Assembly: GCA_963828165.1 (NCBI GenBank)
Contig: CAWHDR010000001.1
Span: forward strand, 416,001-480,000
DNA length: 64,000 bases
Direction of reading: 5' to 3'
Source: an uncultured Chloroflexia bacterium
GTDB taxonomy: Bacteria; Chloroflexota; Limnocylindria; Limnocylindrales; CSP1-4
Position 1 is the stretch's first letter. Each line of letters opens with the position of its first letter. Under the pieces are notes generated by a model that was not told the origin of the DNA, ran no database searches, and saw nothing but the letters and a program-made list of their open reading frames with translations. Below, in pieces: positions 929 through 39,513 of this stretch. The translations under genes were made by a program, and so were the position numbers.

Positions 929-2188
929 GCGACCGCCGACGGATCTGGATCACGGGTATCGGTCTGGTCACGCCGATCGGAACGGGCGTCGATGCGTTCC
1001 GGGACGGGTTGCGCGAAGGCCGCTCGCCGATCAAGCGGATCGATCGATTCGATGCATCCGCGTTCCGCTCCCAGGTCGCCGCCCAGGTCGACGACTTCGA
1101 CCCGCTGGCGTGGATGCCGCCGAAGACCGCGCGCCAACTCGACCGGTTCAGCCAGTTCGGGATGGTGGCCGGCCGTCTTGCGCTGGATGACGCGCGCCTG
1201 GTTCCCGGCACGGACGGCGGGGCCAGCCCGGAGCGCATCGGGATCTACCTCGGTTCGGCGCTCGGGGGCATCGCCTACGCCGAGGAACAGCACGAGCGCT
1301 ACCTCGAGAAGGGGATCCGCCAGGTCGCCCCGAACCTCGCACTGGCGGTCTTCGGCGGCGCGGCCCCGGCCAACCTCGGCATCGCGCTCGACGTCCGCGG
1401 GCCGATCCTGTCCACGGCCAATTCCTGTGCCTCGGGTGCGGTCGCGCTGGGCGAGGCGCTCGGCGACCTGCGCGAAGGCCGCGTCGACGCGGCGATCGCC
1501 GGCGGCTGCGAGATCCCGCTGTCGCCGCTCGCGTTCGGTGCGTTCGACATCATCCGAGCCCTGTCCGCGGGCCACAACGACGAGCCGGACTGCGCCGCGC
1601 GGCCGTTCGATATGGGGCGCGACGGCTTCGTCATGGGCGAGGGCGCGGCGCTGCTCGTGCTGGAGGATGCCGAGGCGGCCGCGCGTCGCGGCGCGACGCC
1701 ATACGCCGAGCTGCTCGGCTACGGGGCCACGTCAGATGCCCACCACATGGTCCAGCCGCGGGCCGACGGGCGCGAGGCGGCGCGCGCCGCATCGATCGCG
1801 CTGCAGGACGCGGACACGGCGCCCGATGCGATCGACTACGTCAACGCCCACGCGTCCTCGACACCGATCGGCGACGTGGCCGAGGCGCGCGCGATCGTGA
1901 CGGCCCTGGGCGAGCGGGCCCGAACGGTCCCGGTGAGCGGCACGAAGGCGCTGTATGGACATCCACTCGGGGCGTCGGGGGCGATCGAGGCCGCGATCTG
2001 CGCCCTCGCGATCCGCGACGGCTGGGCGCCTTCGTCGGTCAACCTGGTCGAGCCCGATCCTGACTCGGCGGCGCTCCTGCCCGGTCTCCTGCGCGAAGGC
2101 CGGGCCGGGACCTACCGGCGGGCTGCTGAGCACCTCGTTCGGCTTCGGCGGCCTGAACGCGGCGCTGGTACTGGGCGCCGTCGACTGA
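925..2188 (+). CDS. fabF: Beta-ketoacyl-ACP synthase II (FabF-like), apparent +1 frameshift at ~2121
   Basis: ITGIGLVTPIG, catalytic NSCASG, NAHASST, KALYGHPLGASG; the C-terminal STSFGFGGLNAALVL motif lies in the next frame after GGG 2120-2122. Confidence 0.88.
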
Positions 2189-3513
2189 GCCGCCGCGCTC
2201 TCGGTGGCCATCTCGACGGCCGGCGCAGAAGCCCGCGGTCCGATGCTCGCCGGCGACGGGGAGCCGATCCGACGCCACCAGACGTACGCACCCGCCCCGA
2301 CCGCCAGCGACAGCAGGCCGCCGACGGCCACGGTCATCGGGATCCCGGCTGCAGACGCGAGCGCGCCGGCGGCGATGCCGCCGATCGGCATGGAGGCCGA
2401 GAAGACCGTGGTGTAGACGCTCATCACGCGCCCACGCAGGCCATCGGGTACGGACAGCTGGATGGTCGCATTGGCCGTGGCCGCCATCGTGATGCCACCG
2501 GCGCCGATGGGGATCATCAGCGCGAGCGACAACGGGAACGACGTCGAAAACGCCAGCGCCACCGAGGCGATCCCGAGGATGACCGCGCCGAGAGCGATGC
2601 GGATCGGGCGCGGCCGCCCACCGATGACCAGCGCGACCGCGGCGCCGAGCGCGCCGAGACCGGAGGCGGTCATGAGGAATCCGTAGCCCGTGGCATCGCT
2701 GCCGAGCACGTTCGCGGCGAGTGGCGGGATGATGACCGTGAAATTCATGCCGACGGTCGCGACGAGGCCGACGACCGTGACGGCGAGCAGCACGACCGGG
2801 GTGTCGCGGACGAAGCGCAGCCCCTCGCCCAGGTGCGTGAAGACCTCGCGGACGGATTCCGGCCGCGGCACCAGCCGCGCCATCTGGAGCTCGCTGTCGC
2901 GCATCATGCGCAGGCCGATGATGACCGCCACGAAGCTCACGGCGTTGATCGTGAAGGCGGTCGCGATGCCGAACAGGCCGATCGTCAGCCCGGCTACGGC
3001 CGGGCCAACGACGCGGGCGCCATTGAACATCGCCGAGTTGAGCGCCACGGCGTTGCCCACATCGCGCGGACCGACCATCTCGTAGGCGAACGACTGGCGG
3101 GCCGGCATGTCGACGGCGTTCGCGCAGCCGAGCAGCACCGCGAGCAGCACGATGTGCCAGACCTGTACGAGGCCCGTCGCCGTGAGGAAGGCCAGGATCG
3201 CCGCGAGCACCATCATCACGACCTGGGCCGCGATGAGGGTCCGCCGCTTGGGCAGGACGTCCGCGAGGATGCCCGCGAACAGACCAAGGACCATGACCGG
3301 CAGGAACTGGGCGGCGGCCACGACCCCCAGCCACAGCGGATCGCCCCCGGTGATGGTCAGCACGAGCCATGCCTGCGCGACCTGCTGCATCCACGTGCCG
3401 ACGAGCGAGATCGCCTGGCCGGCGAAGAAGAGCCGGTAGTTTCGGTGCCGGAACGCGGTCATCGCCTTCGTGCGCACGATGTTGCGCGGCGCCAGGGCGG
3501 ACGGCCCGATCAT
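2112..3513 (-). CDS. MFS transporter (DHA3/EntS-like)
   Basis: FRHRNYRLFFAGQAISLVGTWMQ, ~12 hydrophobic segments, LRGRVMS motif; true stop probably TAG at 2112-2114 once the 1-bp indel is corrected. Confidence 0.88.
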
Positions 3514-4034
3514 CGGCGGGATCCCCTCGTGGGAAGCGGTCCGGGATGCGGTCCGCCACCCGGATGCGGATCGGGGCCTCCGTCGAGATTGGCGAGATGC
3601 TCATCGAGATGGCGCCGCCGGCCACGAGCGTCGGCGATCATCGAGTCGAGGCGGGCGCGCTTGGCGACGAGCGTTTCGATCTGCCGATCGACCCGGGCGG
3701 TCGCGTCCTTGAGCAAGGCGCGTCGCTCGGCCTTGTCGCCGGTCGTGCGGAACCGCTGCCGATTGCGTTCGCGGGCGGCCTCGTCCTCGAGCAGCTGACC
3801 GATCTGGGCAAGCGAGAATCCGGCGTCATCACGGAGGGAGCGGATGAAGCGCAGGCGCTCCAGGTCGGACGCATCGAACAGCCGGTAGGCGCCGTCCGAT
3901 CGGGCGGCGGGCTCCAGGAGGCCCATCTCTTCGTAGTAGCGGATCGCGCGGGTCGTCAGACCGGTCTCGGCGGCGACATCCTGGATCCTGAGAAGGGCAG
4001 GCTCGGCGGGGGTCGCGAGGGTCTTCGTGGGCAT
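3510..4034 (-). CDS. MerR-family transcriptional regulator
   Basis: LRIQDVAAETGLTTRAIRYYEEMGLL..R..GAYRLF HTH followed by a coiled coil. Confidence 0.92.
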   Translation of the reverse strand: MPTKTLATPAEPALLRIQDVAAETGLTTRAIRYYEEMGLLEPAARSDGAYRLFDASDLERLRFIRSLRDDAGFSLAQIGQLLEDEAARERNRQRFRTTGDKAERRALLKDATARVDRQIETLVAKRARLDSMIADARGRRRHLDEHLANLDGGPDPHPGGGPHPGPLPTRGSRR

Positions 4035-4052
4035 CCCATCAACGATACCACA

Positions 4053-4074
4053 ACCTTCACGTTCACGTGAAGGT
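4053..4074. promoter_or_regulatory. Putative MerR-type operator
   Basis: Perfect inverted repeat ACCTTCACG-N4-CGTGAAGGT immediately upstream of the merR-MFS unit. Confidence 0.7.
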
Positions 4075-4209
4075 CATGGGCGCGCGACGACCCGGCTCGT
4101 GGTGGATGACGTTCGTCCATGCGGGGACTCGACGACGATCGGTGGTCCGGCAACGGGCCGTGACGCGACGATGGCCGCATCGACCTATCGCGCATCCCCG
4201 GAGACCATC

Positions 4210-4386
4210 GTGACCGAATTCGTGAGCCTGCTGCTCGTTGTCGTCGGATCTGCGTTCCTGTATATCGCCGCCGCCAAGCTCGGTGCCGGCCCGCAGGACG
4301 CGATCGACGCCCTATTCGCCAGCCCGATGCCGCCCGCTCGCCCGCGCGGCGTTCAGGAGAACGACCTGCCCCGCTTCGCCTTCTAG
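4210..4386 (+). CDS. Small membrane protein, hypothetical
   Basis: GGAG RBS before GTG; one hydrophobic helix, then PRGVQENDLPRFAF. Confidence 0.55.
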   Translation: MTEFVSLLLVVVGSAFLYIAAAKLGAGPQDAIDALFASPMPPARPRGVQENDLPRFAF

Positions 4387-4417
4387 CCCGAAGAGATCGC
4401 CCGTGGGCGATCTATGG

Positions 4418-5411
4418 TCAGTCGAGCGTGAAGTAGTCCGGGTCCTGGTAGCGGCCCGTCCGCTGGAACTCGATCTGCATCAGCACGTCGTTGAGCAGCG
4501 ACGACGCGCCGAAGCGGAACCAGTCCGGTGACATCCAGCGCGGCCCGAGCGTCTCGTACAGGATCACGAGGTACTGGATCGCCTCCTTGGCGGTCCGGAT
4601 CCCACCCGCGGGCTTCATCCCCACCTGGCGCCCGGTCGCCCGCTCGAAGTCGCGGATCGCCTCGAGCATCACGAGGGTGACCGGCATCGTCGCGGCCGGC
4701 TCCACCTTGCCGGTCGAGGTCTTGATGAAGTCGGCGCCGGCCGCCATCGCCAGGATCGACGCGCGCCGCACGTTGTCGTAGGTCTCGAGCTCGCCCGTCT
4801 CGAGGATGACCTTCAAGTGCGCCTCGCCGGCCGCCTCCTTGACCTCGACGATCTCCTCGAACACCGTCGCGTAGTCGCCCATCAGGAACGCCCCGCGGTC
4901 GATGACCATGTCGATCTCATCTGCCCCGGCTTCCACCGACGCGCGCGTCTCGGCGAGCTTGATGTCGCGGAACGTCTGGCCGCTGGGGAAGCCGGTCGCG
5001 ACGCTGGCGACCTTGACGCCGCTCCCCTTCAACGCGTCCTTGGCCTCGGCCACGAGCGCGGGGTAGACGCACAGCGCCGCAACGGACGGGATCGTCGGGT
5101 CGCCCGGCTTGGGATGCATCGCCTTGACGGCCAGCGCCCGGATCTTCCCCGCTGTGTCCTTCCCCTCGAGCGTCGTGAGATCCATCATCCGGATCGCCAG
5201 ATCGAGTGCCCAGACCTTCGACGCCTTCTTGATGGAACGCCGCTTGAGCGCATCGACCCGTTCCTCGACGCCTACCTGGTCGACCGTGCTGACCCGCCCG
5301 AGCAGGCTGCCGAGGGGATCGCCGATGGAACGCGAGCGGCCGTCCCACGCACGAATTCAGCTCGTTGGCGCGCTGGCGGGCGAGGGTCTCGGGGCGCTTG
5401 GTGGCCGTCAT
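4418..5411 (-). CDS. deoC: Deoxyribose-phosphate aldolase, apparent +1 frameshift at ~5356
   Basis: DLTTLEG, VATGFPSG, GADEIDMV, LKVILETGEL, DFIKTSTG, KPAGGIR, RFGASSLL; N-terminal 18 codons are in an adjacent frame. Confidence 0.92.
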
Positions 5412-9731: not shown

Positions 9732-10169
9732 GTGACGACCCCGACCCACGCGTCCGGCGCCTTCGCTCCGGCGACGCCCCAGACCACGCCCGTGAAGATC
9801 CATGCAGACCGCGCCGCCGGGACGCTCGCGATCGAGTGGGCCGACGCGCACGCGACGACGTACGGGTTCGAGCCGCTCCGCTGGCTGTGCCCATGCGCCC
9901 ATTGCCGTGGCGAGGCCGGGATGCCCGGCTGGCTCGACAGCAACCCGACGCTGACGACCGAGCAGACGACCCTGACCGACCTGCATCCCGTGGGCAACTA
10001 CGCGATCTCGCCACACTGGGCCGACGGGCACAAGACCGGCTACTACACGTACGTCCTGCTACGCGACCGGTGTCCGTGCCCCGAGTGCAGCGCTCGGCGC
10101 ACTGCGACGCCCGCCGGTGGCGAGCCCGCGCCAGCGCCCCCTGCCGGCACGCACGAGGAGCATCGCTAG
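9732..10169 (+). CDS. DUF971/GBBH-like N-terminal domain protein
   Basis: LAIEWAD.H, LR..CPCAHC, VGNYAI...W.DGH.TG.Y; start codon uncertain. Confidence 0.85.
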   Translation: MTTPTHASGAFAPATPQTTPVKIHADRAAGTLAIEWADAHATTYGFEPLRWLCPCAHCRGEAGMPGWLDSNPTLTTEQTTLTDLHPVGNYAISPHWADGHKTGYYTYVLLRDRCPCPECSARRTATPAGGEPAPAPPAGTHEEHR

Positions 10170-10415
10170 GCGTCATCGCGTCCCCGGCCGCCGCATTCGG
10201 TCGGCGCGGCGAGGCGTGCCGGGGCAAGGCGGCGGCGAGCACGGGAGCGAGCGCACTGGAACTGCGTGAGCGAGCGCGCGGAGCCGCCAACGCGGCCTGG
10301 TGCAGCCTCGTCGCGCCGGGAACGTTCATCGGGCCGTGCTATCCTCGCCGGCCAGCCCGTGACGCCCAGGGACGCCTGCGCGTGCGCGTGACCCACCAGG
10401 AGCCTCCACGCAGCG

Positions 10416-12593
10416 ATGGCCGCCGTCCAACCCGGAACCCGCGCCTCATCCCTGGCTCCAGCTCGCCCCCGGCGAGCACGCAAGGAACAGCCCGAGCTTC
10501 CGTATCTCAACCGCGAACTTTCCTGGCTCGAGTTCAACGGGCGCGTGCTGCACGAGGCTCGCGACGCGCGCAACCCCCTGCTCGAGCGGGTCAAGTTCCT
10601 GGCCATCTTCGCCGGCAATCTCGACGAGTTCTTCCAGGTCCGCGTCGCCGGCCTGCGCCAGCAGATCGAGGCCGGCGCCGTCACTCGGGCCCCCGATGGG
10701 CGAACTCCCGGGGAACAGGTCGCTGCCGTCCGTGAACGGGTTCTGACGCTCGCTGCCGACCATTCCGCGATCTTCGTCGAGGTCCGGGGAGCGCTCGCTG
10801 CCGAAGGCGTCGAGATCGTCGACTACGCCAACATCCCCGAGCATCACGCCGCGCTCCGCCAGCGCTTCCTTGACGAGATCTACCCGGTCCTGACCCCCCT
10901 CGCGGTCGATCCGGGCCACCCGTTCCCCTACATCTCGACGCTGAGCCTGTCCATCGCGGTCGGCCTGCGCGATCCGGACACCGGCGAGCGCGTGTTCGCC
11001 CGGGTCAAGGTCCCGCAGATCCTGCCGCGCTTGCTCGAGGTCGAGGCCGATCACTTCGTGCCGATCGACCAGGTCATCGAGGCCAATCTCCAGGACCTGT
11101 TCACGGGCATGGAGGTTGTCGAGGCGCACCTGTTCCGCGTCACCCGCAACGCCGACTTCACGGTGGAAGAGGACGAGGCCGACGACCTCCTGATGGCGAT
11201 CGAGGAGGAGCTCCGGCGACGTCGGTTCGGTGAGGCCGTCCGGCTCGAAGTGGAGCGGACGATGCCGGCGGCCACGCGGACCCTCTTGCAGCGCGGACTC
11301 GGCCTCGAAGCCGAAGACAGCTACGAGATCTCCGGCATGCTCGACCTCACCGCCCTGTACCGGATCGCAGAGCTCGATCGGCCGGAGCTGCGGGCCGAGC
11401 CATGGACCCCGGTCACCCCGCCGCGCCTCATCCCACCCGACGAGGACGAGCCGGCCGACGTCTTCGCCGCGGTCCGAGCCGGCGACATCCTCGTCCACCA
11501 CCCATACGATTCCTTCGCCGCGTCCGTGGAGCGCTTCATCACCCAGGCCGCCGACGACCCGGACGTCCTCACGATCAAGCAGACGCTGTACCGGACGTCC
11601 GGCGATTCGCCCATCGTCCAGTCGCTGATCCGGGCCGCGGAGCGCGGCAAGCAGGTCGTGGTCCTCGTCGAGATCAAGGCGCGCTTCGACGAGGAGGCGA
11701 ACATCATCTGGGCGCGCAAGCTGGAGCGGGCGGGTGCGCACGTCGTCTACGGGCTCGTCGGGCTCAAGACGCACTCCAAGACGGCCCTCGTCGTGCGCCG
11801 CGAGGGCTCGGGATTGCGTCGGTACGTCCACATCGGGACGGGCAACTACAACCCCAAGACCGCCCGCTTGTACGTGGACCTCGGGTTGCTGACGGCTCGC
11901 CCGGAGATCGGCGCGGACGTCACGGATCTGTTCAACGTCCTGACCGGCTTGTCCAGGCAGCGCACGTTCCGGCGGCTCCTCGTCGCTCCCCACAGCCTGC
12001 GCTCGGGGTTCCTTGCGCTCGTTGACCGCGAGGTGGCCCACGCCGAGGCCGGACGCCCGGCCCGGATCGTGCTGAAGCTCAATTCGATCGTCGACACCCC
12101 GGTCATCGAGGCCCTCTACCATGCCTCCAGCGCCGGAGTCGATATCGACCTGATCGTGCGTGCGGCGTGCTCACTGCAGCCCGGCCTGCCCGGGATCTCG
12201 GAACGGATCCGGGTCCGCTCGATCGTCGGTGAGTTCCTGGAGCACTCGCGGATCTGGGGCTTCGAGAACGGCGGCGATCAGGAGTGGTACATCGGCTCTG
12301 CCGACCTCATGGACCGGAACCTGGATCGCCGGGTAGAGGCGGTCGTGCCGGTCGAGGACACCGACGCCAAGGCGCGGATCGCCGAGATCATCGAGATCAT
12401 GTTGGCCGACGACCGGCGATCGTGGCAGCTCCAGCCGGACGCCTCGTGGGTCCGCACGGAGGTCCTCGAAGAGCGTTCCGGCACGATCGACACGTTCGAG
12501 GTGCTCAAGGAACGCGCCATGACGTCCGCACACGCGGCGGCGGCTCCGCGGCGGCCGCATTCCGGAGCCGGGTCGCTGGATCCTCGGGCGTGA
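10416..12593 (+). CDS. ppk1: Polyphosphate kinase 1
   Basis: NRELSWLEFN, NLDEFFQVRVAGL, HPFPYIS, HHPYDSF, KTHSK, FLEHSRI, SADLMDRNLDRRVE. Confidence 0.98.
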   Translation: MAAVQPGTRASSLAPARPRRARKEQPELPYLNRELSWLEFNGRVLHEARDARNPLLERVKFLAIFAGNLDEFFQVRVAGLRQQIEAGAVTRAPDGRTPGEQVAAVRERVLTLAADHSAIFVEVRGALAAEGVEIVDYANIPEHHAALRQRFLDEIYPVLTPLAVDPGHPFPYISTLSLSIAVGLRDPDTGERVFARVKVPQILPRLLEVEADHFVPIDQVIEANLQDLFTGMEVVEAHLFRVTRNADFTVEEDEADDLLMAIEEELRRRRFGEAVRLEVERTMPAATRTLLQRGLGLEAEDSYEISGMLDLTALYRIAELDRPELRAEPWTPVTPPRLIPPDEDEPADVFAAVRAGDILVHHPYDSFAASVERFITQAADDPDVLTIKQTLYRTSGDSPIVQSLIRAAERGKQVVVLVEIKARFDEEANIIWARKLERAGAHVVYGLVGLKTHSKTALVVRREGSGLRRYVHIGTGNYNPKTARLYVDLGLLTARPEIGADVTDLFNVLTGLSRQRTFRRLLVAPHSLRSGFLALVDREVAHAEAGRPARIVLKLNSIVDTPVIEALYHASSAGVDIDLIVRAACSLQPGLPGISERIRVRSIVGEFLEHSRIWGFENGGDQEWYIGSADLMDRNLDRRVEAVVPVEDTDAKARIAEIIEIMLADDRRSWQLQPDASWVRTEVLEERSGTIDTFEVLKERAMTSAHAAAAPRRPHSGAGSLDPRA

Positions 12594-32382: not shown

Positions 32383-33078
32383 CTAGGACGGACGCCGGAA
32401 GACGTAGCCCACGCCGCGAACCGTGTGGATGAACACCGGATTGCCGGGATCCTCCTCGATCTGGCTGCGCAGCCAGTGCACGTGCACATCGACCGTGCGT
32501 GTCTCGCCGGCGTAGTCGTAGCCCCAGACCTTCTCGAGCAGCTGGTCGCGGGTGAAGACCTGGCCCGGATTACGGAGCAGGAACGCGAGCAGCTCGAACG
32601 CCTTGGGCTTGATCGGCAGGGTCACGCCGTCGCGCAGGAGTCGATGGCCGCCGAGATCCGCCTGCACGCGGCCCAGGTCGACGATCGTCGGCGGCGACCC
32701 GACCGCGAGCGCGGCTTCCGAACGCCGGAAGAGGGCTCGGATCCGCGCCGTCAGTTCGCGCAGCGAGAACGGTTTCGTGACGTAGTCGTCCGCGCCGAGC
32801 TCCAGCCCGACCACCTTGTCGAGCTCCGAATCCTTCGCGGTGAGCATCACGATCGGGGTGCCTGACTCCGCGCGGATGATCCGCATCACCTCGATCCCGG
32901 AGAGCTCGGGCAGCATGAGATCGAGCAGGACGAGGTCCGGGCGCTCCCCCCGGAACTGCGTCAGGGCCTCGCGCCCGTCCCCTGCGGCAACGACTCGGAA
33001 TCCGTCCGACTCGAGCGCTTCGACCAGCGTCTCGCGCAGCGTCGGTTCGTCTTCGACGACCAGGATCGTTCGTGCCAT
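32383..33078 (-). CDS. OmpR/PhoB-family response regulator (PhoP/RegX3-like)
   Basis: LLDLMLP, GADDYVTKPFS, RTVDVHV, TVRGVGY; Pho context. Confidence 0.93.
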   Translation of the reverse strand: MARTILVVEDEPTLRETLVEALESDGFRVVAAGDGREALTQFRGERPDLVLLDLMLPELSGIEVMRIIRAESGTPIVMLTAKDSELDKVVGLELGADDYVTKPFSLRELTARIRALFRRSEAALAVGSPPTIVDLGRVQADLGGHRLLRDGVTLPIKPKAFELLAFLLRNPGQVFTRDQLLEKVWGYDYAGETRTVDVHVHWLRSQIEEDPGNPVFIHTVRGVGYVFRRPS

Positions 33079-33095: not shown

Positions 33096-33149
33096 CGGGC
33101 GTGTTAACTCGGGCGTGTTAACGACTTGTTCATGCGTTGTCAAGCGTTG
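33096..33149. promoter_or_regulatory. PHO-box-like array upstream of the response regulator
   Basis: GTTAA (33117), GTTCA (33128), GTCAA (33139) at 11-bp period; CGGGCGTGTTAAC duplicated at 33096 and 33110. Confidence 0.6.
33119..33130 (+). repeat. Putative attL core
   Basis: TAACGACTTGTT; 11/12 identical to 39471-39482, first 8 bp exact. Confidence 0.7.
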
Positions 33150-33550
33150 CACACAATCTGGGGAGAGCGTGGTAGCGCCTGCATTTAGCAGGGTCTCAAC
33201 AGGGCGATACTCGGATTAGGTGTTAACGTGGGTTCGGTGGACTAGTAGGCCTAATAGGCCTACGTAGTACATGAGGTGGCCATCGTGCGCACGGCATACT
33301 GCGGGGGGTATGCGTGGATCGCCTTGCGTAGAAGACGCCCCCGCTACTCTGGCAGATGTCAGTCAACCGGAATAGCAAAGGCGTCTCCTATGACTCTACA
33401 ACGACCGGCGGTCCAACGCCATGCCATGTTTGAGATCCACGTCATCGCCCCGCCAGGTCGCTATCGCGATCCTGGCTGTCGCCATTTGGCTTCGCCGCCG
33501 GGACGGGGCTAGGGCTCTACTTTTTGGCGCAGTTATGGGGTGTAAAACGA

Positions 33551-33671
33551 ATGCCGAACATCGTCTACCAGTGCCGCAAATGCGGAATGAGCATCGACGC
33601 TGACGAACGAGCGTCCTGGTGCGAAAAGATGTCGGGATCAGGACCGGCGGCAGCATCGACATCAACGCTAA
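33551..33671 (+). CDS. Putative ~39-aa zinc-ribbon protein (needs 1-bp correction)
   Basis: MPNIVYQCRKCG...WCE; removing one A from 33624-33627 gives CERC and a stop at 33669-33671. Confidence 0.35.
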
Positions 33672-34013
33672 TCGACAGGATGAGGAAGTCGCCCACAAGG
33701 GCCATGAGGGCTATGGACGGCGCGGGGATATCGCGTTGTCAGCGAGGGGCCTCTGCGGGAAATCGTGCCCTAGGTCTGCGCCGAAGGGCTCGTAGGGTGA
33801 TTGGACTCGTCGGCCGTTTCGCGGGCCTCTTCCGTCGATATTTCACGCTAGGGCACGGCTCACTTAGGCCCCCTGATTTCGGAGACTGTCGGTGCCGCGA
33901 TAAGGGCGGATTTGGGGGGTACTTTTGTGCGGGGCGTGGTCCGCTCGGGCGGCCGGGTTGCCCTCCGCTATGTCCTCAGAGATAAGGCCCGATTTCGCGG
34001 ACTGTCGCCCTAA

Positions 34014-34106
34014 CTAGAACAGCGGCGGGACGGCAGCATCGCAGGTCAGAAAAAGCAAGAGAACGATGGCCGCTACCAGGACGACGGTCGCCGGCCGGAC
34101 CCTCAT
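34014..34106 (-). CDS. 30-aa single-TM peptide
   Basis: Hand translation MRVRPATVVLVAAIVLLLFLTCDAAVPPLF; starts 3 bp after the previous stop. Confidence 0.55.
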   Translation of the reverse strand: MRVRPATVVLVAAIVLLLFLTCDAAVPPLF

Positions 34107-34109
34107 CGG

Positions 34110-34229
34110 TCAGAGCCCCGGCGGCGGGGCCGCCTGATGCACGGGCTGCGTCAGCCACAGGATCACGAACAGGACGATCCAGAACGCGATCACCGACGCG
34201 ACGACGGCTACCAGTGCCCTCGATTTCAT
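34110..34229 (-). CDS. 39-aa single-TM peptide
   Basis: Hand translation MKSRALVAVVASVIAFWIVLFVILWLTQPVHQAAPPPGL; TGATG coupling to the upstream ORF. Confidence 0.65.
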   Translation of the reverse strand: MKSRALVAVVASVIAFWIVLFVILWLTQPVHQAAPPPGL

Positions 34230-34501
34230 CAGCCCACCTTAGCCGCCTGCCATCGCTCGAGCGTGGCCGCCACCACGGAGACGATGCGGCAGCGGTAGTC
34301 CTGCATCACAAGGTCGATATCGGCGGGCACGAGCCGGGCGACGATCTCCGCCTCTAGCTCAATGATCTCGGCATCGTTGTCCACGATGCCGCCCAGCACT
34401 TCGGCCAGGGACGCATCCTCGAGCGCATCGGTGTAGAGCATGTCGAAACCTACTAGCGGCGCGATGTGACGGTGCGCCTCTCGTGTAGCCTCCGAGGGCA
34501 T
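34229..34501 (-). CDS. Acidic hypothetical protein (90 aa)
   Basis: GGGAGG RBS; MPSEATREAHRH...; coupled to the downstream peptide. Confidence 0.65.
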   Translation of the reverse strand: MPSEATREAHRHIAPLVGFDMLYTDALEDASLAEVLGGIVDNDAEIIELEAEIVARLVPADIDLVMQDYRCRIVSVVAATLERWQAAKVG

Positions 34502-34571
34502 GATGATGCCCTCCCGTCTCCCGAGGAAACAAGAGGGCAAAAGGTACGGCGTGTCGATACGTGCTGGGCGG

Positions 34572-35810
34572 CTACTCCAGGACGCCGGAGCGCGGCGTGT
34601 TGCGGGGGTCAAAGGGCTTCGGCGGCTTGGGCGGCCTGAGCAAGGCGCCGGCCTTCGCCGCTTCCGCTGCGGCCTGACCCGCCGCTACGCCTGCGGCCGT
34701 CGCTGCGGCCGCTGCGCCTGACACGGTTCCCACCACTGAGGCAGGCGATAGCGTCGCCGGCGGGCTCGACGGCGCCGGGATGCTAGGGCTCGGAGGAGGC
34801 GACGCGGGTGGTCGCGCGAAGAGGCCGGGGACGGTCCCCATCTTCGGCAGTTCCGGCGGACCGGCTTCCTTGCTGGCCGGCGACTTGCCGGCGAACAGCT
34901 CCTGCGTGACTTGTCGGATCGAGTCCATCCCGTCGAGGATGCTGGAGCGGAGGTCGCCACCACCGCCTTGCGTGGTCGCCTCCTGTACTCCCACTCCCAG
35001 ACGGGATAGCCCGCCTTCGTCCTTTCGGTAGTCGAGGCGCCTGCGCCGCTCTGCGGCCTCCAGGCGCTGGCGGTACTCCTCCACTCGCGTCGGGCCGAGC
35101 GTTCTCACCGTGCCGTCCGCCACGAGGGCGAGTAGGTCGTCGGGGGAGATCGGCGTATCGAGCATCAACGGATCAGCGGAGCCGGCGTTGATGGCGCCCT
35201 GATCCACAAGGGCCGCGTTGGCGATGGGTCGGATGGAGGCGTTGCCCTTCTCGTCGGTGAGGCGATCGACCAAAAGCGAGAACACCGCCAGCCCGTCGAT
35301 GACGCCAGCAAGCGGGTCCATCTTCCAGGGGTTCGTCTCGGTGAAGAACATCTGGCGCGTTGCCGGGTCGATGACGCCATAGCGGGTTTGTCCGGTCGCG
35401 GGGTTACGGAACACGTAGCCGGCCGCTTCGCCGGGGGCGATCGCGGGCGAACCGTTATCAAGGCCAGCCCGAAGGGTGGCCGCGTCGATATCGCTCGGTG
35501 AGATGGCGCGGTACTCCTCGCCGGGAATGACGAGGGCGGCAGCCCTGACGGGCTCGCCCTTCAGGTACACCACGCGACGCTCGCCGTTCACGACGCTGAT
35601 GGAGGGCTGTAGCGAGTCGTCGAGCCCTAGGCCGCCCGCAGGCCACTGGATGACCTCGAGGGGGCCGCCGACCTCTTTCTGGCCGTAGTAGGCCCGTCCA
35701 GAGGTCAGGGCCTCCAAGTCGGCCCTTAGTTGCGTCGCGCCGGCCGCCGAGTTTGCAGCGTCAGCCGTGACGACGCCTTCCCCGGTATTCGGAGGTGGCC
35801 TCCCGAACAA
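34572..35810 (-). CDS. Large orphan protein with Pro/Ala-rich C-terminus
   Basis: 412-codon ORF co-oriented with the other element genes; start uncertain. Confidence 0.7.
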   Translation of the reverse strand: MFGRPPPNTGEGVVTADAANSAAGATQLRADLEALTSGRAYYGQKEVGGPLEVIQWPAGGLGLDDSLQPSISVVNGERRVVYLKGEPVRAAALVIPGEEYRAISPSDIDAATLRAGLDNGSPAIAPGEAAGYVFRNPATGQTRYGVIDPATRQMFFTETNPWKMDPLAGVIDGLAVFSLLVDRLTDEKGNASIRPIANAALVDQGAINAGSADPLMLDTPISPDDLLALVADGTVRTLGPTRVEEYRQRLEAAERRRRLDYRKDEGGLSRLGVGVQEATTQGGGGDLRSSILDGMDSIRQVTQELFAGKSPASKEAGPPELPKMGTVPGLFARPPASPPPSPSIPAPSSPPATLSPASVVGTVSGAAAAATAAGVAAGQAAAEAAKAGALLRPPKPPKPFDPRNTPRSGVLE

Positions 35811-36027
35811 ACTCCCGCCGCTCGGCCGCCTCTATCAAGAGAAGGATGCAGTGGTGCTAACTAACGGGATCAGGGGCCATGTTGCCTAGCACTTCCGTGC
35901 ACAGATGACGGCCGCTCGGGGCTCGATAGCCCCTGATAATCGGCCGCTATCGGTGCCTGTTCGCCTGCCCTGTCTAGGGCCAGGCTCACGCGTTACGTGC
36001 GCGATCGCGTCTGCGTGCGCGTAGGAC

Positions 36028-36135
36028 TCAGCCCTGCGTCTGGATCGCGGCGAGAGCTTGGTACGCCAAGAACCACAGCACGACGATGGCGAGGGCCAGG
36101 ACGATGATGATGACCGTAGGCCTTCGCCCGATCAT
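36028..36135 (-). CDS. 35-aa single-TM peptide
   Basis: Hand translation MIGRRPTVIIIVLALAIVVLWFLAYQALAAIQTQG; GGAG RBS. Confidence 0.65.
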   Translation of the reverse strand: MIGRRPTVIIIVLALAIVVLWFLAYQALAAIQTQG

Positions 36136-36146
36136 GTGGTGCTCCG

Positions 36147-36242
36147 TCAGGTAAGCAGGAGGATCAGTGCCACGAGGGCCAGGACGCCCAGCACGCCCAG
36201 CACCGAGACGATGACGATGACGGTGGCAGTTCGACCGCTCAT
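36147..36242 (-). CDS. 31-aa single-TM peptide
   Basis: Hand translation MSGRTATVIVIVSVLGVLGVLALVALILLLT. Confidence 0.6.
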   Translation of the reverse strand: MSGRTATVIVIVSVLGVLGVLALVALILLLT

Positions 36243-36291
36243 CGACAGACTCTAACGCCTCGGTGTAGCAGCTCGCGCCACGTTGCGCGGC

Positions 36292-36447
36292 TTACGAGGT
36301 CGCATCGGGCGCCTTCCTTACCACGACTATCGGAGAGGTCAGCCATTCGGTGTGGCGATGCCATCGGCAAGCGCCTCGTGTCAGCCTGTGGACTGGCCGC
36401 AGCTCGTTGCAGATGACACATCGACGCAGGGCTTGACGCTTACGCAT
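36292..36447 (-). CDS. 51-aa putative zinc-finger protein
   Basis: Hand translation MRKRQALRRCVICNELRPVHRLTRGACRWH... (CxxC...CxxH); TGATG coupling to rep. Confidence 0.55.
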   Translation of the reverse strand: MRKRQALRRCVICNELRPVHRLTRGACRWHRHTEWLTSPIVVVRKAPDATS

Positions 36448-37160
36448 CAGAACGGAAGATCCTCAGACGAGGGACACGTCGGGAAATGGAATGCGCCACC
36501 CTCCAGGTCGGCTGCCCGCTCGCCGATGATCGGCTCGCCACAGTTGCTACACGTCGGAGGGAGCGGAGCGGCGGTAGCCGCGGTAGCGACCGTCTCCACC
36601 CTCATCGACGAGTCTGAAGTTCGCGAAGCGAACGAAACTATCTCGCTCTCTCGCTCGCTCTGTTGCTCGCTCTCTCTCTCGCTCTCTATGTGTCCCGGTT
36701 CGTGCGTGATTTCCGCAGATATTCCGGGGCTTTCCGGGGTTGCGCCCGGAGGTGCGAGTCGCTTTCGCTCTCGATCCTTGGCTCTCCGGCGCTCCGACAC
36801 GAGTTGCCGCAGCAGTTCGTCCTGCTTCCGCTCCTCGGCCGGCGCCATCGGGTTCCACATCCGCCACTGTGGGATGACCAGCGTGCCGTTGCGGTTCACC
36901 CTGACGAGATCCGACGCGATCAGGTCCTCCAGGTAGACGGAGTACTCGCGGAGGGCCGCTTCCAGGTATTCGCGGCCAAGCCACACGCCGCGCACGCGCT
37001 CGAGGAATGCGGCGATGAGGGCGTACACGAAGGCGACACGTGCGCTGTCGCTCGGCAGTCCGAGCCACTTCGGATTGTCCCGCAGAAACACGTACAGGCG
37101 GAGCCAATCGGTCGTCTTGTCGGGGCGCTCTCGCGGCGGGCTCTCGGTCGGTTCAGTCAT
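36447..37160 (-). CDS. Putative phage-type replication initiator (replisome organiser-like)
   Basis: WLRL...DNPK...IPQWRMWNP...R.KDRERKR layout, low-complexity linker with internal DNA repeats, C-terminal CxxC...HxxxC. Confidence 0.6.
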   Translation of the reverse strand: MTEPTESPPRERPDKTTDWLRLYVFLRDNPKWLGLPSDSARVAFVYALIAAFLERVRGVWLGREYLEAALREYSVYLEDLIASDLVRVNRNGTLVIPQWRMWNPMAPAEERKQDELLRQLVSERRRAKDRERKRLAPPGATPESPGISAEITHEPGHIESERESEQQSERESEIVSFASRTSDSSMRVETVATAATAAPLPPTCSNCGEPIIGERAADLEGGAFHFPTCPSSEDLPF

Positions 37161-37170
37161 GGGCGGTTCG

Positions 37171-37222
37171 TCCTGTATGCGAGGGGTAGGCTCCGCTCGC
37201 CCGCATACGACGAGCGGAGCCT
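37171..37222 (-). promoter_or_regulatory. Predicted RNA hairpin/pseudoknot in the rep leader
   Basis: Perfect 12-bp stem; loop GTATGCG is complementary to CGCATAC next to the AGGA SD. Confidence 0.55.
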
Positions 37223-37341
37223 GTTTCGCCGGCGGAGGCTACAAATCCGCACGCCGACGTGGAACGCGCAGCGGATCAGCCAACGGGCAGGGGTACGGGG
37301 ACCGGGAGTAGCTTCGGCCCCTCGCACTCACTTCCAGAAAA

Positions 37342-37896
37342 CTATGCAACGAACGTCGGCCGCCACAGTTCGCGGCGGCCTTCTTTCGGGTCCCCGAGGT
37401 CGAACAGGTCCCCGAGGTCGTTGATGTCGAGGAGCCGGCCCACGTTCGCTTGATCTCGACTCACGGTGGATTGCCTGACGCGGAGAACGGCGGCAATCTG
37501 TCCCTGCGAGCCGTAGGGAGTGGCGAGCCAGGCGGCCGTCTGACGCTCGCCCGCACCTAGCGATTGCACGAGGTGCGCCCGCCAGAGGAACCCGATCATC
37601 GGCGCGTAGTCGTAGGTGCCGTCGTCGGGCTCGTCGGAGACAACCCGGACGATGCTGTCATCTGGCGTCTCAGCGATGGCCGACAGGGGTATGGCCGGGT
37701 CGTCCAGCTCCGAGTACGTGATGCCGATCCCACCGAGGTAGGCGCGCATCGACTGGGGAAAGAGTCGAGCCGCCTTGATGTAGTTCAGGTTGCGCTCGTC
37801 GCAGGCCAGGCACTCGCCGGAGGTGGGCGGGACCTTGCAGTCCGCGGTCGGGCAGACATGGCAGCGATGGCGGAGATCCCGACCGATGCGGGTCAT
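37342..37896 (-). CDS. Zinc-binding + C-terminal HTH putative regulator
   Basis: CHVC...C...CLAC at the N-terminus; SQGQIAAVLRVRQSTVSRD HTH. Confidence 0.65.
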   Translation of the reverse strand: MTRIGRDLRHRCHVCPTADCKVPPTSGECLACDERNLNYIKAARLFPQSMRAYLGGIGITYSELDDPAIPLSAIAETPDDSIVRVVSDEPDDGTYDYAPMIGFLWRAHLVQSLGAGERQTAAWLATPYGSQGQIAAVLRVRQSTVSRDQANVGRLLDINDLGDLFDLGDPKEGRRELWRPTFVA

Positions 37897-38168
37897 GCCG
37901 ACTTCCGCGACTGCGCCGACTTTGCCGCCAAGCGGGCGAAGTGCGCCCGTCTCAGGAACTCAGCACGGCGGGCGCGCTCGAGCTCGGAGAGGTCAGGAGG
38001 GAGGATCGTGGGCGGGCATACCGCGCACTCGTGGCCGACGAGAAAGGATCTCCGATACGCGTCTCTGGCGGGCGGCGTGATGGCCGTGCCGCCGTACCGT
38101 GCGGCCGTGGTGAGGCCGCCCAGGCGGCCACGTGCCGCCATGCTGGACGATTGGCGCTCGGGCGCCAC
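37893..38168 (-). CDS. Small basic hypothetical protein
   Basis: ERARRAEFLRRAHFARLAAKSAQSR; ATGA overlap with the next ORF; start uncertain. Confidence 0.65.
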   Translation of the reverse strand: MAPERQSSSMAARGRLGGLTTAARYGGTAITPPARDAYRRSFLVGHECAVCPPTILPPDLSELERARRAEFLRRAHFARLAAKSAQSRKSA

Positions 38169-38484
38169 TAGTGGGCCAGGGCGGGTACCGATGAGCCTGC
38201 GGCGGCAACAGGGTTGGGGCGTGCGCCCATGGGCGTTTCTCCGGTTCGGGATGCGGGGTCACAGGGCTAAATGGTAGCCCGCTCGTATGCCCAGGGCGGC
38301 CGATTTCGGGCCGCTCGTGATGATCGGCTTGATACGCATTGCGACACAGGATGTCGAACCGGTTATCCACGACCGCCCGATGGATTAGGGTGGAACTCGT
38401 GGGTTCCGAAAGCCGCCCGATCCATCGGGCGCTTGTAGTAGTAGGCGTCGAGGAAGTAGGCAGCATGGCCCAGCCGCCAAGGGC

Positions 38485-39412
38485 CTATTCCTCGGCGTAG
38501 AGGCGGTCGTACGCGTCGCTCGCGCGTTCCCACTTCGCGGCCTTGCCGTACCGCTGGACCATCTTCGCGTTCCGCCAACCGCCGAGGGCCATGAGGATCT
38601 CGTCGGTGGCGCCCTTCGCCTTCAGGTCGTGGGCGAACGCGTGGCGCAGTTGATGCGGAGTCACGTGTCCGACCCCGGCCATTCGCCCGCGACGTTCCAC
38701 CATCGCGCCGAGCGCGGCGATGGAAAGGGGCTGGCCCTGTAGTCCGACCCACAGGCGCCCGGACTTGCCGGCCTTCGACTTGCGAGCCTCGATGTAGCGG
38801 ATCAGCGCGACCGCGGCCTCGGGCGAGAAGCGCGCCCGGCGCGGGTCGCCTCCCTTGCCGCGTCGGATCAGCGCCCGACCCGCATCCGTGTCGATGTCCT
38901 CGAGCATGAGCATCGCGCACTGCGCGCGACGCATCCCCGAGCTGCGGAGCACGAGCAGGATGGCGAGGTCGCGCCGATCGAGGAACGTCGGCGGCTTGTG
39001 CTTGCGGCATGTTGCCAGCATCCGATCCAGCGCGGCATCCGACACGAACGGGCGCCCCGCATCGTCCTCGGGAACGACGATCGGCTTGATGCCCTTCATG
39101 GGCGAGTCCTTCAGCTCGCCCTCTGCCACGAGGTACGAGAACCAACCCCGTAGCCCCTGATAGCGCAGGCGAGCCGAGGCCGGCGCGTAGGGCAGATTGA
39201 GGAACTCGCGGACGTGCTCGGCACTGATCGCAGCGGGCGCCGTAGGCATCCCCTGCCCTGTCAGGAAGGTCCCGAACATGGCGCAGCGTGCCGAGGTAAC
39301 TACGAATTGTTCCGGGGCTCTTGCCCTCCTGTCGGAGCGCACGCTCGCAGGACAGCATTCCGGCGCCGAAGTCTCCCGATACGCCTTCAGGTGTTAGCAC
39401 CACTTGAGCCAT
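38485..39412 (-). CDS. Tyrosine recombinase/integrase, apparent +1 frameshift at ~39280
   Basis: Catalytic set SGMR, RGKG, HQLRH, GGW, QRY; N-terminal core-binding segment SPGTIRSY is in the adjacent frame. Confidence 0.92.
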
Positions 39413-39470
39413 AGCAGCACCCATTAACAGGGGGTGTTCGTGCGTAGATGCACGAACTGAAAGCATACGC

Positions 39471-39482
39471 TAACGACTCGTT
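39471..39482 (+). repeat. Putative attR core
   Basis: TAACGACTCGTT, about 60 bp upstream of the integrase start. Confidence 0.7.
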
Positions 39483-39513
39483 TGCGCGGTGTTCACTCGA
39501 TCGCGATCGCCGG

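Follow-up and report, generated by a model that had tools for sequence, protein, structure and literature searches.

The locus lies in a window of 64,000 nucleotides, which is the whole stretch of DNA that was analyzed, and consists of an integrated element with a response-regulator gene on one side and SnoaL/gltX on the other. In the window, ∼6.35 kb separates the response-regulator gene (up to 33111/33112) from the SnoaL gene (from 39508/39509). The insertion is real, as an empty counterpart was found in two of the nine congener loci examined (L005 and L012), where the response-regulator gene adjoins the SnoaL gene with 8 to 9 nt between them. The element is bounded by a 12-nt imperfect direct repeat with one mismatch, and L007 and L008 also carry the attR version of this repeat in their empty sites. 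Foreign DNA came in by site-specific recombination at this 12-nt core, within the intergenic region upstream of the response-regulator gene, and its entry was presumably catalyzed by the tyrosine integrase that the element encodes. The boundaries proposed in an earlier note are borne out by the L005 and L012 empty sites and the flanking repeat. Just left of the attL core, a 13-nt motif is tandemly duplicated (33096 to 33108 and 33110 to 33122). The features of the element are as follows:

33119 to 33130, no strand: attL core, 12-nt direct repeat, one mismatch relative to the attR copy; located at the L005/L012 empty-site junction
33131 to 34013, no strand: left non-coding arm, 883 bp, 59.9% GC, GC3 without a clear frame
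34014 to 34106, minus strand: 30-aa single-pass membrane peptide, KD19 2.78, strong GC3 signal
34110 to 34229, minus strand: 39-aa single-pass membrane peptide, 1-nt overlap between its start and the stop of the acidic ORF
34229 to 34612, minus strand: acidic ORF, 127 aa as listed
34572 to 35810, minus strand: 412-aa ORF, 5'-truncated copy of a ∼700 to 750-aa portal-adjacent tailed-phage virion-module protein (profile positions 335 to 711)
35811 to 36027, no strand: 217-bp non-coding gap 5' of the truncated gene, a candidate scar of recombination or deletion
36028 to 36135, minus strand: 35-aa single-pass membrane peptide, by hydropathy and peptide alignment
36147 to 36242, minus strand: 31-aa single-pass membrane peptide, sharing 52% identity with the 35-aa peptide
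36292 to 36447, minus strand: 51-aa basic Cys/His-rich ORF, 1-nt overlap between its start and the stop of the 237-aa gene, no family match
36447 to 37160, minus strand: 237-aa protein with a C-terminal Cys-x2-Cys ... His/Cys motif, phrog_9474 E 0.0034
37342 to 37896, minus strand: 184-aa protein with an N-terminal Cys/His cluster and a C-terminal HTH-like stretch, four homologues
37893 to 38168, minus strand: 91-aa basic ORF, pI 11.3, 4-nt overlap with the next gene, no family match
38485 to 39412, minus strand: tyrosine integrase, PF00589 E 2.3e-26, 5' part in a different frame
39471 to 39482, no strand: attR core, 12-nt direct repeat, from the sequence read and the empty-site comparison

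All of the listed ORFs are co-directional on the minus strand, and their pI, Cys content, and hydropathy agree with the labels they had been given. The GC3 frame signals fit these ORFs, except across the leftmost 883 bp and in three internal gaps. The element is 72% coding and 28% non-coding, with a GC content of 65.5% versus 69 to 71% in the flanks. Leaving aside the junctions of the truncated gene, neighboring genes overlap at three junctions, by 1 or 4 nt, and are separated by just 3 and 11 nt at two more.

The integrase is the only element ORF that matches a curated family. Its catalytic part is a 285-aa ORF (38485 to 39342) that matches PF00589 and phrog_1 (E 2.2e-38), while the XerC and XerD models score below their own cut-offs. 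Among phages, it is most similar to tyrosine integrases of mycobacteriophages (33.5% identity). The gene is broken at its 5' end: a three-frame translation places the first ∼48 codons (from 39412) out of frame with the catalytic domain. The alignment of the XerC model to the ORF starts at profile position 29, which corresponds to residue 24, and the upstream piece has a weak Phage_int_SAM_4 match (E 0.37). The split frame could be a frameshift or an assembly error. At the opposite end of the element, the left arm may be an attP arm, an origin or packaging site, or decayed sequence. Its description as structured is unproven, since short inverted repeats and palindromes were all that was seen and no Rfam family matched. 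A plus-strand ORF within the arm (33551 to 33985) begins with a Cys-x2-Cys and has a merely sub-threshold Pfam match.

The 237-aa protein, which had been labeled as a Rep, weakly resembles phage replication initiators and replisome organizers, and the label is a weak assignment (phrog_9474, E 0.0034). One homologue, P0007, is 96% identical, and a second, P0008 (56%), matches phrog_3926 (E 2.3e-4) and phrog_13246 (E 0.013). Atlas look-alikes of the protein are Lin1244_N (PF14297) members, mostly viral, with scores of 0.91 to 0.92, and a tblastn search of 72,556 plasmid records gave no match. The 184-aa protein, a presumed regulator, contains five Cys and has four homologues at 52 to 73% identity (50 to 75% in the MAFFT alignment A4). 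Across these five sequences 71 columns are invariant, among them H10, H13, C15, C20, C29, and C32, and a C-terminal segment is conserved. The protein matched no family in Pfam, PHROGs, or NCBIfam, and its AF2 model was unusable (pLDDT 37). A relationship between the 184-aa protein and the terS-like ORF of L018 was considered and rejected (hhalign probability 3.7%). The 51-aa protein has three Cys and a pI of 11.6.

The four peptides of 30 to 39 aa each contain one strongly hydrophobic stretch (KD19 2.8 to 3.1) and a basic N-terminus. They align with each other, so that paralogues lie on either side of the 412-aa fragment. The acidic ORF between them is more likely a 90-aa protein that starts at the internal ATG at 34501, with a pI of 4.3 as compared to 4.8 for the 127-aa form, and it has no match in Pfam, PHROG, NCBIfam, or PADLOC.

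The largest gene had been called an orphan. It has clear relatives, and it is a copy of a tailed-phage head-module gene that lacks its 5' part. On a 712-position family profile, the 412-aa ORF aligns to positions 335 to 711 only, that is, to the C-terminal ∼55%. Its closest homologues (P0002 to P0006) are 693 to 717 aa in length, carry ∼335 additional N-terminal residues, and share 38 to 42% identity over 60 to 93% of the query. The missing part was not found elsewhere in the element's own genome, which matches only residues 347 to 682 of P0002 and lacks its N-terminal ∼340 residues. Homology starts 8 codons inside the ORF and 15 codons past an in-frame stop, which itself lies 7 codons upstream of the ORF. 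The sole in-frame start candidates near the 5' end are TTG codons, and a GGGAG-like stretch is just 1 nt from the first of them. Alone among the genes of the element, the truncated one has a non-coding gap at each end, of 217 nt upstream and, assuming that translation of the acidic ORF begins at the internal ATG, of 70 nt downstream. The fragment keeps all eight invariant C-terminal columns of a 25-sequence alignment (A3), and it sits on a branch of ordinary length in the tree (terminal branch 0.80 versus 0.52 to 0.80 in its clade; root-to-tip 1.61 in a range of 1.10 to 2.01). Hydropathy shows neither a signal peptide nor a membrane anchor in the protein, whose highest KD19 (1.56) falls in an Ala-rich insert, and its sole significant structural match is to an uncultured Caudovirales protein (E 1.2e-9).

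The family to which this fragment belongs consists of proteins of ∼700 to 750 aa with 385 cluster representatives, and has no Pfam, PHROG, or NCBIfam model. In three independent tailed-phage contigs (L018, L019, and L021), the family gene is directly 3' of the portal gene. One of the three, L021, has a large terminase and a major head protein as well, with matches for TerL (phrog_2, E 5.8e-19), the portal (phrog_64, E 2.7e-4), and the major head protein (phrog_1357, E 1.7e-44). The head-module layout taken from these contigs is terminase, portal, ∼700-aa protein, ∼1,090-aa protein, and major head protein. The earlier note had named homologues within full prophages as evidence against a new element, and for the largest gene this is what is seen, its homologues sitting between portal and major head protein. 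The other element genes had no match in these phage contigs, which cover mainly head modules. The family was modeled confidently by AF2 (pLDDT 77) as a helical N-domain, a linker, and a helix leading into a beta-rich C-domain. The most conserved part of the family is its N-terminal region; the helical domain at profile positions ∼1 to 180, common to all members, is absent from the window ORF, and many of the 150 listed relatives, 800 to 1,300 aa in length, match only the first ∼130 to 200 profile positions. The C-terminal beta-rich domain, the helical segment, and the Pro-rich tail of the family are all present in the window ORF, which begins in the predicted linker (residues ∼334 to 342), where pLDDT dips.

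The element is single-copy in its own genome (6 contigs, 87.7% complete), and no second integrated copy was found in ∼1,200 sampled genomes or in IMG/VR. A search with the 237-aa protein in 400 other genomes of the order found nothing aside from one weak partial match, and the 184-aa family was not found in the genomes sampled from the class (400) or from the phylum (400). The backbone genes have a few relatives in metagenomes, and a scan of viral, genome, and metagenome collections found no contigs carrying P0007, P0008, or P0158 to P0161. Among 50,697 phage records, no backbone gene except the integrase found a match.

Taken together, we favor, with about even confidence, the reading that the element is a defective, phage-derived cryptic island, an ordinary outcome rather than a new self-replicating kind. 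The ancestor would have been a tailed temperate phage, or else a mosaic formed by recombination with one, with a head module like that of L018, L019, and L021, and its morphogenesis genes would have been removed by internal deletions or illegitimate recombination. What was left over would be an early train of integrase, 91-aa basic protein, Cys/His-HTH regulator, replisome-organizer-like protein, and small Cys-rich protein, together with the four paralogous membrane peptides, the acidic protein, and the 3' 55% of the portal-adjacent virion gene between two non-coding gaps. Such an island would be unable to build particles, its further movement would need a helper phage, and it may not even excise because the integrase reading frame is interrupted. 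As expected of a defective prophage, site-specific insertion was found along with an integrase and flanking repeats, and truncated or disrupted phage-type genes were found without complete morphogenesis modules. Cryptic Caudoviricetes prophage remnants are alike in combining an integrase and att repeats with few early-type genes and a truncated virion-module gene, and also in the interrupted integrase frame, the large non-coding share, and the lack of a morphogenesis module. However, the element is just 6.35 kb with one recognizable phage fragment, its backbone is intact-looking and tightly packed, and, the integrase aside, that backbone is unmatched in the phage records.

Several observations argue against the defective-island reading. 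A single internal fragment amid backbone genes requires two separate rearrangements, and the membrane paralogues on both sides are explained by a small element having captured a fragment no less well than by deletion within a large one. Apart from the fragment, no gene of the element matches the phage contigs, mainly head modules. The backbone genes look healthy, with overlaps, high GC3, and the 71 invariant columns of the 184-aa family; the C-terminal domain keeps its invariant residues on a branch of ordinary length; and the frameshift in the integrase could be an artifact of assembly.

The earlier note had found a poor fit to PICI, inovirus, IME, and AICE definitions, and this assessment stands, as no hallmark family was found. 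On the element ORFs, Pfam, PHROGs, and NCBIfam gave no match to terminase, portal, capsid, primase, Zot/FtsK, or relaxase families, as that note had said, nor to terS, AlpA, or capsid-remodeling families. PICIs and SaPIs typically have a pri-rep primase/helicase replicase, terS/capsid redirection, and a divergent regulator pair. The element, at half their usual size, lacks the primase/helicase replicase, terS, capsid redirection, and divergent repressor pair, but is likewise an integrase-bearing island with regulatory and replication genes. PICIs and SaPIs are described as integrase-bearing, helper-dependent islands with regulatory and replication modules (PMC12822802). The same preprint describes EPIPs of Mycolicibacterium, phage-dependent elements of 11 kb with a serine integrase and terS, adaptor, stopper, and scaffold genes, whose phage-type virion genes include a tape measure protein and which have no tail or lysis genes (PMC12822802, preprint). 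EPIPs are thus an earlier case of a small element in which some virion-type genes are retained, but none of their other listed features (serine integrase, terS, adaptor, stopper, scaffold) was found here.

The leading alternative is a working minimalist phage satellite (a hitcher), a small integrative element that has its own integrase, regulator, and replisome-organizer-type initiator and is induced and packaged by an L021-type tailed helper, which we regard as possible but doubtful. The truncated virion gene would then have been captured from the helper, and would interfere with or join helper assembly, or be a mere scar. PICMIs, the phage-inducible chromosomal minimalist islands of Vibrionaceae, are capsid-less and integrase-bearing, and they share with the element a size of ∼6 kb, the gene order (integrase, small gene by the integrase, regulator, replication gene, and genes of unknown function), and large non-coding regions with small ORFs or pseudogenes; PICMI115 is the example whose size and layout the element resembles (PMC10803314). 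The same account gives integrase, AlpA (PF05930, PF12728), and primase (DUF3987, DUF5906) as their SatelliteFinder markers and fis as their integration site (PMC10803314). Unlike these PICMIs, as far as that account describes them, the element has only the integrase among the markers (Pfam), is not at fis, is in a different host, and carries a virion-gene fragment. VEIMEs, virion-encapsidated integrative mobile elements of marine plankton, are also small and integrative; they encode a tyrosine integrase, lack a major capsid gene, and consist mostly of genes without database homologues, but they are defined operationally as head-to-tail concatemers inside virions (PMC9618062). With PICMIs and VEIMEs already described, and the largest gene a fragment of a tailed-phage virion-module gene, the claim of no obvious known class was overstated.

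The satellite reading draws further support from the clean att ends, the tight co-directional backbone operons, and the conserved relatives of backbone proteins in other metagenomes. The fragment itself starts in the predicted interdomain linker of the AF2 model, retains the invariant C-terminal residues of its family, and is flanked on both sides by paralogous membrane peptides, and the element's own genome (87.7% complete) holds no resident tailed prophage as a companion in decay, since no L021-type terminase, portal, or capsid, PF05065, or PF03354 was found in it. Against this, terS, AlpA, primase, and capsid-remodeling families are missing from the element ORFs, the fragment lacks the conserved N-domain and starts at a weak TTG, the integrase lacks a continuous reading frame, non-coding sequence makes up 28% of the element, and no second copy was found in the sampled genomes or in IMG/VR. 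A more specific form of the idea, somewhat less probable, is that of a new ∼6.4-kb minimalist satellite family of uncultured tailed phages in a high-GC host, equipped with its own tyrosine integrase, a Cys/His-HTH switch, a replisome-organizer-type initiator, and a set of tiny membrane peptides, and deliberately carrying only the domain-bounded C-terminal half of the helper's portal-adjacent protein as a decoy against assembly or ejection or as a ticket into particles. Of the earlier proposal of a new satellite or membrane/vesicle element, the satellite part is a tentative possibility and the membrane/vesicle part is unsupported.

It is unlikely that the element is a non-phage integrative element, plasmid-like or mobilizable, that replicates via the 237-aa protein and holds a phage fragment by chance. 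An integrase, a putative initiator, and an absence of virion genes would fit, as would the four small membrane peptides, which we take to loosely resemble the spread genes of actinomycete integrative elements. However, the element ORFs gave no match to relaxase, FtsK/TraB-type translocase, Rep_SA, or prim-pol families, and it thus differs from AICEs and IMEs in lacking these and any RepSA-, RepAM-, or prim-pol-type replicase. The 237-aa protein is also unmatched in the plasmid records, and its look-alikes are mostly viral clusters and its weak profile matches phage families. An integrated filamentous or membrane-containing (pleomorphic, vesicle-borne) virus, with the peptides as coat and the large protein as adsorption or spike protein, is very improbable and disfavored: the four small single-pass peptides with basic N-termini, the small genome, and the Pro-rich tail of the large protein would suit it, but no Zot/pI-type assembly ATPase or rolling-circle Rep of the inovirus kind was found on any ORF, and the only structural candidate belongs to Caudoviricetes, being of a family encoded beside the tailed-phage portal gene, with its one significant structural match to a Caudovirales protein and no signal peptide or membrane anchor by hydropathy.

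If the cryptic-island reading is true, this analysis removes a false lead toward a new class of replicon. If the satellite reading is true, the element would be a satellite of PICMI size from a host other than Vibrionaceae, and its use of a truncated virion protein from the helper would represent a new strategy for interference or hitch-hiking. As a by-product, the analysis brought out a large unannotated family beside the portal in uncultured high-GC tailed phages, which is a target for virion proteomics and cryo-EM.

The window carries a ~6.35-kb insertion at a 12-nt core, derived in part from a tailed phage. Its ends were compared with the nine best loci for the neighboring response-regulator gene in congeners (L005-L013); an orthologue of this gene is present in 31 of 31 searched genomes of the genus. 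In L005 and L012, 8-9 nt separate the regulator gene (window 33111/33112) from the SnoaL gene (window 39508/39509). The same interval is 40-170 nt in L007, L010, and L011 and 1.3 kb in L008; L006 has 467 nt as far as gltX, and SnoaL and gltX are absent from the flanks fetched for L009 and L013. Alignment of the junctions revealed two copies of a 12-nt repeat that differ at one position (33119-33130 and 39471-39482); a generic repeat finder had missed this repeat, which was recovered by aligning the empty sites. Since these repeats bound the insert, the unit measures ~6.35 kb. L007 and L008 have exact copies of the attR version of the repeat in their empty sites, as part of a motif upstream of the regulator gene that is conserved and partly palindromic. 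The empty sites of L005 and L012, together with the flanking repeat, bear out the element ends proposed in the earlier note. The four loci with extended flanks (L014-L017) contain gltX in every case and SnoaL paralogues in three, and none encodes element proteins; extra SnoaL paralogues or other DNA occupy the site. A tRNA was rejected as the integration target because none lies within the 64-kb window, and the att site is therefore intergenic. The element has a GC content of 65.5%, as compared to 69-71% in the flanks, and is single-copy in its own genome (69% GC, 3.31 Mb in 6 contigs, 87.7% complete).

Features of the insert and its flanks (window positions)
32383-33078, minus strand: response-regulator gene (PF00072, PF00486)
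Element, minus strand, first: integrase
Element, minus strand, second: 91-aa basic protein (pI 11.3)
Element, minus strand, third: 184-aa Cys/His-rich protein with HTH-like C-terminus
Element, minus strand, fourth: 237-aa protein
Element, minus strand, fifth: 51-aa basic Cys-rich protein
Element, minus strand, sixth: membrane peptides of 31 and 35 aa
Element, minus strand, seventh: 412-aa ORF
Element, minus strand, eighth: acidic ORF (pI 4.3-4.8)
Element, minus strand, ninth: membrane peptides of 39 and 30 aa
Element, end beyond the ninth: 883 bp with no clear coding frame
Far flank, at the opposite end from the response-regulator gene: SnoaL-like gene, then gltX

All of the ORFs listed in the earlier note were found on the minus strand and in the order it gave. 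The integrase was the sole element ORF with a curated-family match (Pfam, PHROG, NCBIfam), and searches of the element with PADLOC and Rfam returned no match. The coding share of the element is 72%, and its 883-bp end has no clear coding frame. Each of the four membrane peptides begins with a basic stretch and contains a single hydrophobic helix; those of 31 and 35 aa are 52% identical. The only notable ORF on the plus strand of the element, 33551-33985, starts with a Cys-x2-Cys ... Cys pattern and matched a Cas12f1-like TNB zinc-ribbon model below threshold (E 0.026-0.056). Past this pattern, its frame looks non-coding. The ORF may be either a decayed remnant or a gene for a small divergent regulator.

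The 412-aa ORF, which the earlier note had called a large orphan, is a truncated gene of a tailed phage. A word-indexed search identified five relatives (P0002-P0006) of 693-717 aa with 38-42% identity. These have ~335 more N-terminal residues, and the window protein aligns with them from its own residue 8. When 1.84 billion cluster representatives were searched with a family profile, 385 matched at E <= 0.001, of which 350 reached <= 1e-10 and 95 reached <= 1e-30; the window protein covers profile positions 335-711 only. Among the matches listed (150 of the 385), many have lengths of 800-1,300 aa and align to just the first ~130-200 profile positions; the part absent from the 412-aa ORF is therefore the most conserved region of the family. 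When P0002 was searched against the whole genome holding the window, residues 347-682 only were matched, in a 419-codon open frame; thus, no copy of the N-terminal part was detected in that genome. Homology to the phage family begins 15 codons past an in-frame stop. Near the 5' end, TTG is the only type of in-frame start codon, and a GGGAG stretch lies just 1 nt from the first TTG. The flanks of the ORF are non-coding, with 217 nt upstream and, if the acidic ORF starts at an internal ATG, 70 nt downstream; elsewhere in the element, genes overlap by 1 or 4 nt at three junctions and are 3 and 11 nt apart at two.

Of the C-terminal residues that are invariant in the 25-sequence alignment, the part of the phage protein left in the window has 8 of 8. 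In a tree of this domain (all 25 rows kept, 268 columns), the terminal branch of the window protein is 0.80, as compared to 0.52-0.80 in its clade, and its root-to-tip distance is 1.61 in a range of 1.10-2.01, so the branch is not unusually long. We considered a toxin-immunity pair formed by the truncated gene and the acidic ORF and dropped it, because the next gene in two of the phage contigs (L019 and L021) encodes a long Gly-rich protein rather than a small acidic one and no PADLOC or Pfam match was found.

The genomic context of the family was read from three independent contigs. No family locus was found in viral_contigs or genome_contigs with the 6-sequence alignment (A1) as the query. 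The 25-sequence alignment (A3) recovered one in viral_contigs, one in genome_contigs, and five in metagenome_contigs, one of the last being the same contig as the viral locus.

Family genes in the three contigs (family proteins P0002-P0155)
L018 (IMG/VR, 5 kb), 4337-5059: family gene
L019 (MAG contig titled Salinibacterium sp.), 1891-4143: 750-aa family member
L021 (metagenome contig, 17.3-kb stretch), 9956-12169: 737-aa family member

In L018, a small Cys-HTH ORF comes first, then the large terminase gene (PF03237, E 2e-5), then a gene for a 635-aa homologue of the portals of L019 and L021, and finally the family gene. L019 has a portal-like gene, the family member, and a Gly-rich gene. The order in L021 is TerL (phrog_2, E 5.8e-19), portal (phrog_64, E 2.7e-4), the family member, a 1,088-aa protein, and a major head protein (phrog_1357, E 1.7e-44). 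We have found a large family of 385 cluster representatives without annotation that is encoded directly after the portal gene in uncultured high-GC tailed phages. The close relatives and nine distant ones matched no model in Pfam, PHROG, or NCBIfam, and tblastn with P0002 returned no match in phage or plasmid records. The family gene of L018 carries its N-terminal ~120-aa motif twice in tandem, and in several distant members, including P0055 and P0057, the profile matched in 3-4 stretches.

A confident AlphaFold2 model of P0002 was built from the 25 sequences (mean pLDDT 77). The model begins with a helical N-terminal part (1-333) and a short low-confidence linker (~334-342). Next, a helix (343-362) runs into a domain rich in beta structure (365-520), after which come another helical segment and a disordered Pro-rich tail. 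The start of the window ORF falls in the predicted linker. The sole significant match in a fold search was an uncharacterized protein of an uncultured Caudovirales phage (E 1.2e-9), and there was none among PDB folds at E <= 0.001. Sub-threshold matches of the ~700-aa family to T7-type internal virion proteins (Foldseek E 0.02-0.1; Atlas 0.79) serve as a lead only.

The catalytic domain of the integrase is intact within a 285-aa ORF, to which the XerC model aligned from model position 29 only. The N-terminal stretch that this ORF lacks can be read in a different frame from 39412 onward, and its match to Phage_int_SAM_4 was weak and non-significant (E 0.37). The frame break is either a real frameshift or an assembly error. 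The integrase matched 216 phage records, the nearest phage relatives being mycobacteriophage tyrosine integrases (33.5% identity). The integrase and the 91-aa ORF are 316 bp apart (38169-38484), and this gap is overlapped by an alternative-frame ORF, 37993-38466, without a family match; no excisionase-type gene, expected near this gap, was recognized.

The 237-aa protein had been designated "rep". The protein is present, but its assignment to replication is weak (phrog_9474, E 0.0034). Two relatives, P0007 and P0008, have 96% and 56% identity, and the latter matched phrog_3926 (E 2.3e-4) and a replisome-organizer family (E 0.013). Language-model look-alikes were mostly viral clusters with Lin1244_N or annotated HTH DNA-binding (scores 0.91-0.92), and no library detected a helicase, primase, or rolling-circle motif. 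It should be noted that the C-terminus of P0007, from a 4,267-nt metagenome contig, diverges opposite window 36447-36560 into the frame of window ORF 36440-36541, which indicates a frame change in one of the two assemblies; P0008 agrees with the window frame. The 184-aa protein has four relatives (P0158-P0161, 52-73% identity) on short metagenome contigs, and this family has 71 invariant columns that include a Cys/His cluster. It has no relationship to the terS-like ORF of L018 (hhalign probability of 3.7%), and AlphaFold2 gave no usable model of it (pLDDT 37). The alignments of the 237-aa (A2) and 184-aa (A4) proteins gave E values no lower than 0.37 in PDB sequence searches.

Of 401 genomes sampled from the order, two matched the 237-aa backbone protein, namely its own genome and one with a weak 69-residue match; the 184-aa family was found in 1 of 401 genomes in both the class and phylum samples, its own genome each time. 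A2 returned nothing from metagenome_contigs or viral_contigs (IMG/VR), A4 returned nothing from viral_contigs, and neither alignment matched the genome holding L019. No match was obtained by tblastn for either protein in phage records or for the 237-aa protein in plasmid records, nor by blastn of the whole element against phages. Comparison with the phage contigs, which cover mainly head modules, was carried out by blastx without sum statistics, as tblastx was dominated by compositional noise; the truncated gene apart, the element gave no match. The genome holding the window (87.7% complete) itself showed no L021-type portal, TerL, or head protein and no PF05065 or PF03354 match. In the match tables, no contig size recurs across the three sets of metagenome contigs: those with relatives of the phage fragment measure 3,265-9,582 nt, those with relatives of the 237-aa protein 4,267 and 10,457 nt, and those with relatives of the 184-aa protein 1,145-4,172 nt. 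Hence, the genes were not seen linked elsewhere.

Our leading hypothesis, to which we assign about an even chance, is that the element is a defective phage-derived island. A temperate phage would have lost its morphogenesis genes, or a mosaic would have recombined with such a phage. Both routes would have left a train of early-type genes, genes for small membrane peptides, and a virion gene reduced to its 3' 55%; the integrase is possibly disabled. The truncation, non-coding flanks, integrase frame break, and 72% coding share are signs of damage; the conserved relatives of the 184-aa and 237-aa proteins, the invariant residues kept in the phage fragment, and the ordinary tree branch are signs of health. 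The main rival, a tentative one that we consider distinctly less probable, would make the element a functional minimalist satellite, the phage fragment having been captured by its backbone. The fragment begins at a domain boundary and has paralogous peptides on both sides, but it is without the conserved domain of the family and has a weak start. Likewise, the backbone is tightly packed and conserved, but the integrase frame is interrupted, and although the layout is like that of PICMI115 (PMC10803314), the element has no known satellite marker gene. We disfavor a non-phage integrative element as improbable and a filamentous or membrane virus as more improbable still.

The earlier note had judged the element a poor fit to PICI, inovirus, and AICE/IME, and it indeed falls outside the definitions tested, as well as that of PICMI; the features tested for a cryptic phage-derived island are present. 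VEIME membership is operational and refers to concatemers inside virions (PMC9618062). EPIPs demonstrate that small phage-dependent elements can retain phage-type virion genes (PMC12822802), although they have no genes in common with the element. As a candidate new class, the element retains its reality as an insertion but is much less exotic than proposed, the 412-aa ORF being a truncated tailed-phage gene. The more interesting alternative, a satellite, is still live at a minority probability, below that of the defective island.

The integration site has features of its own. The target motif lies just upstream of the response-regulator start codon in 9 of 9 congener loci. At attL of the window, a 13-nt piece of this motif is tandemly duplicated (33096-33108 and 33110-33122), and a similar 13-mer occurs inside the element (33220-33232); these copies could be recombinase binding sites or an operator of the regulator gene. 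The site corresponding to 33112-39508 also varies among congeners (L008, L014, and L016; genomes G148, G094); in some, it holds 1.3-3 kb of other DNA, in which one or two additional SnoaL-like paralogues are found. The junction is thus a small hot spot of variation, independent of the element.
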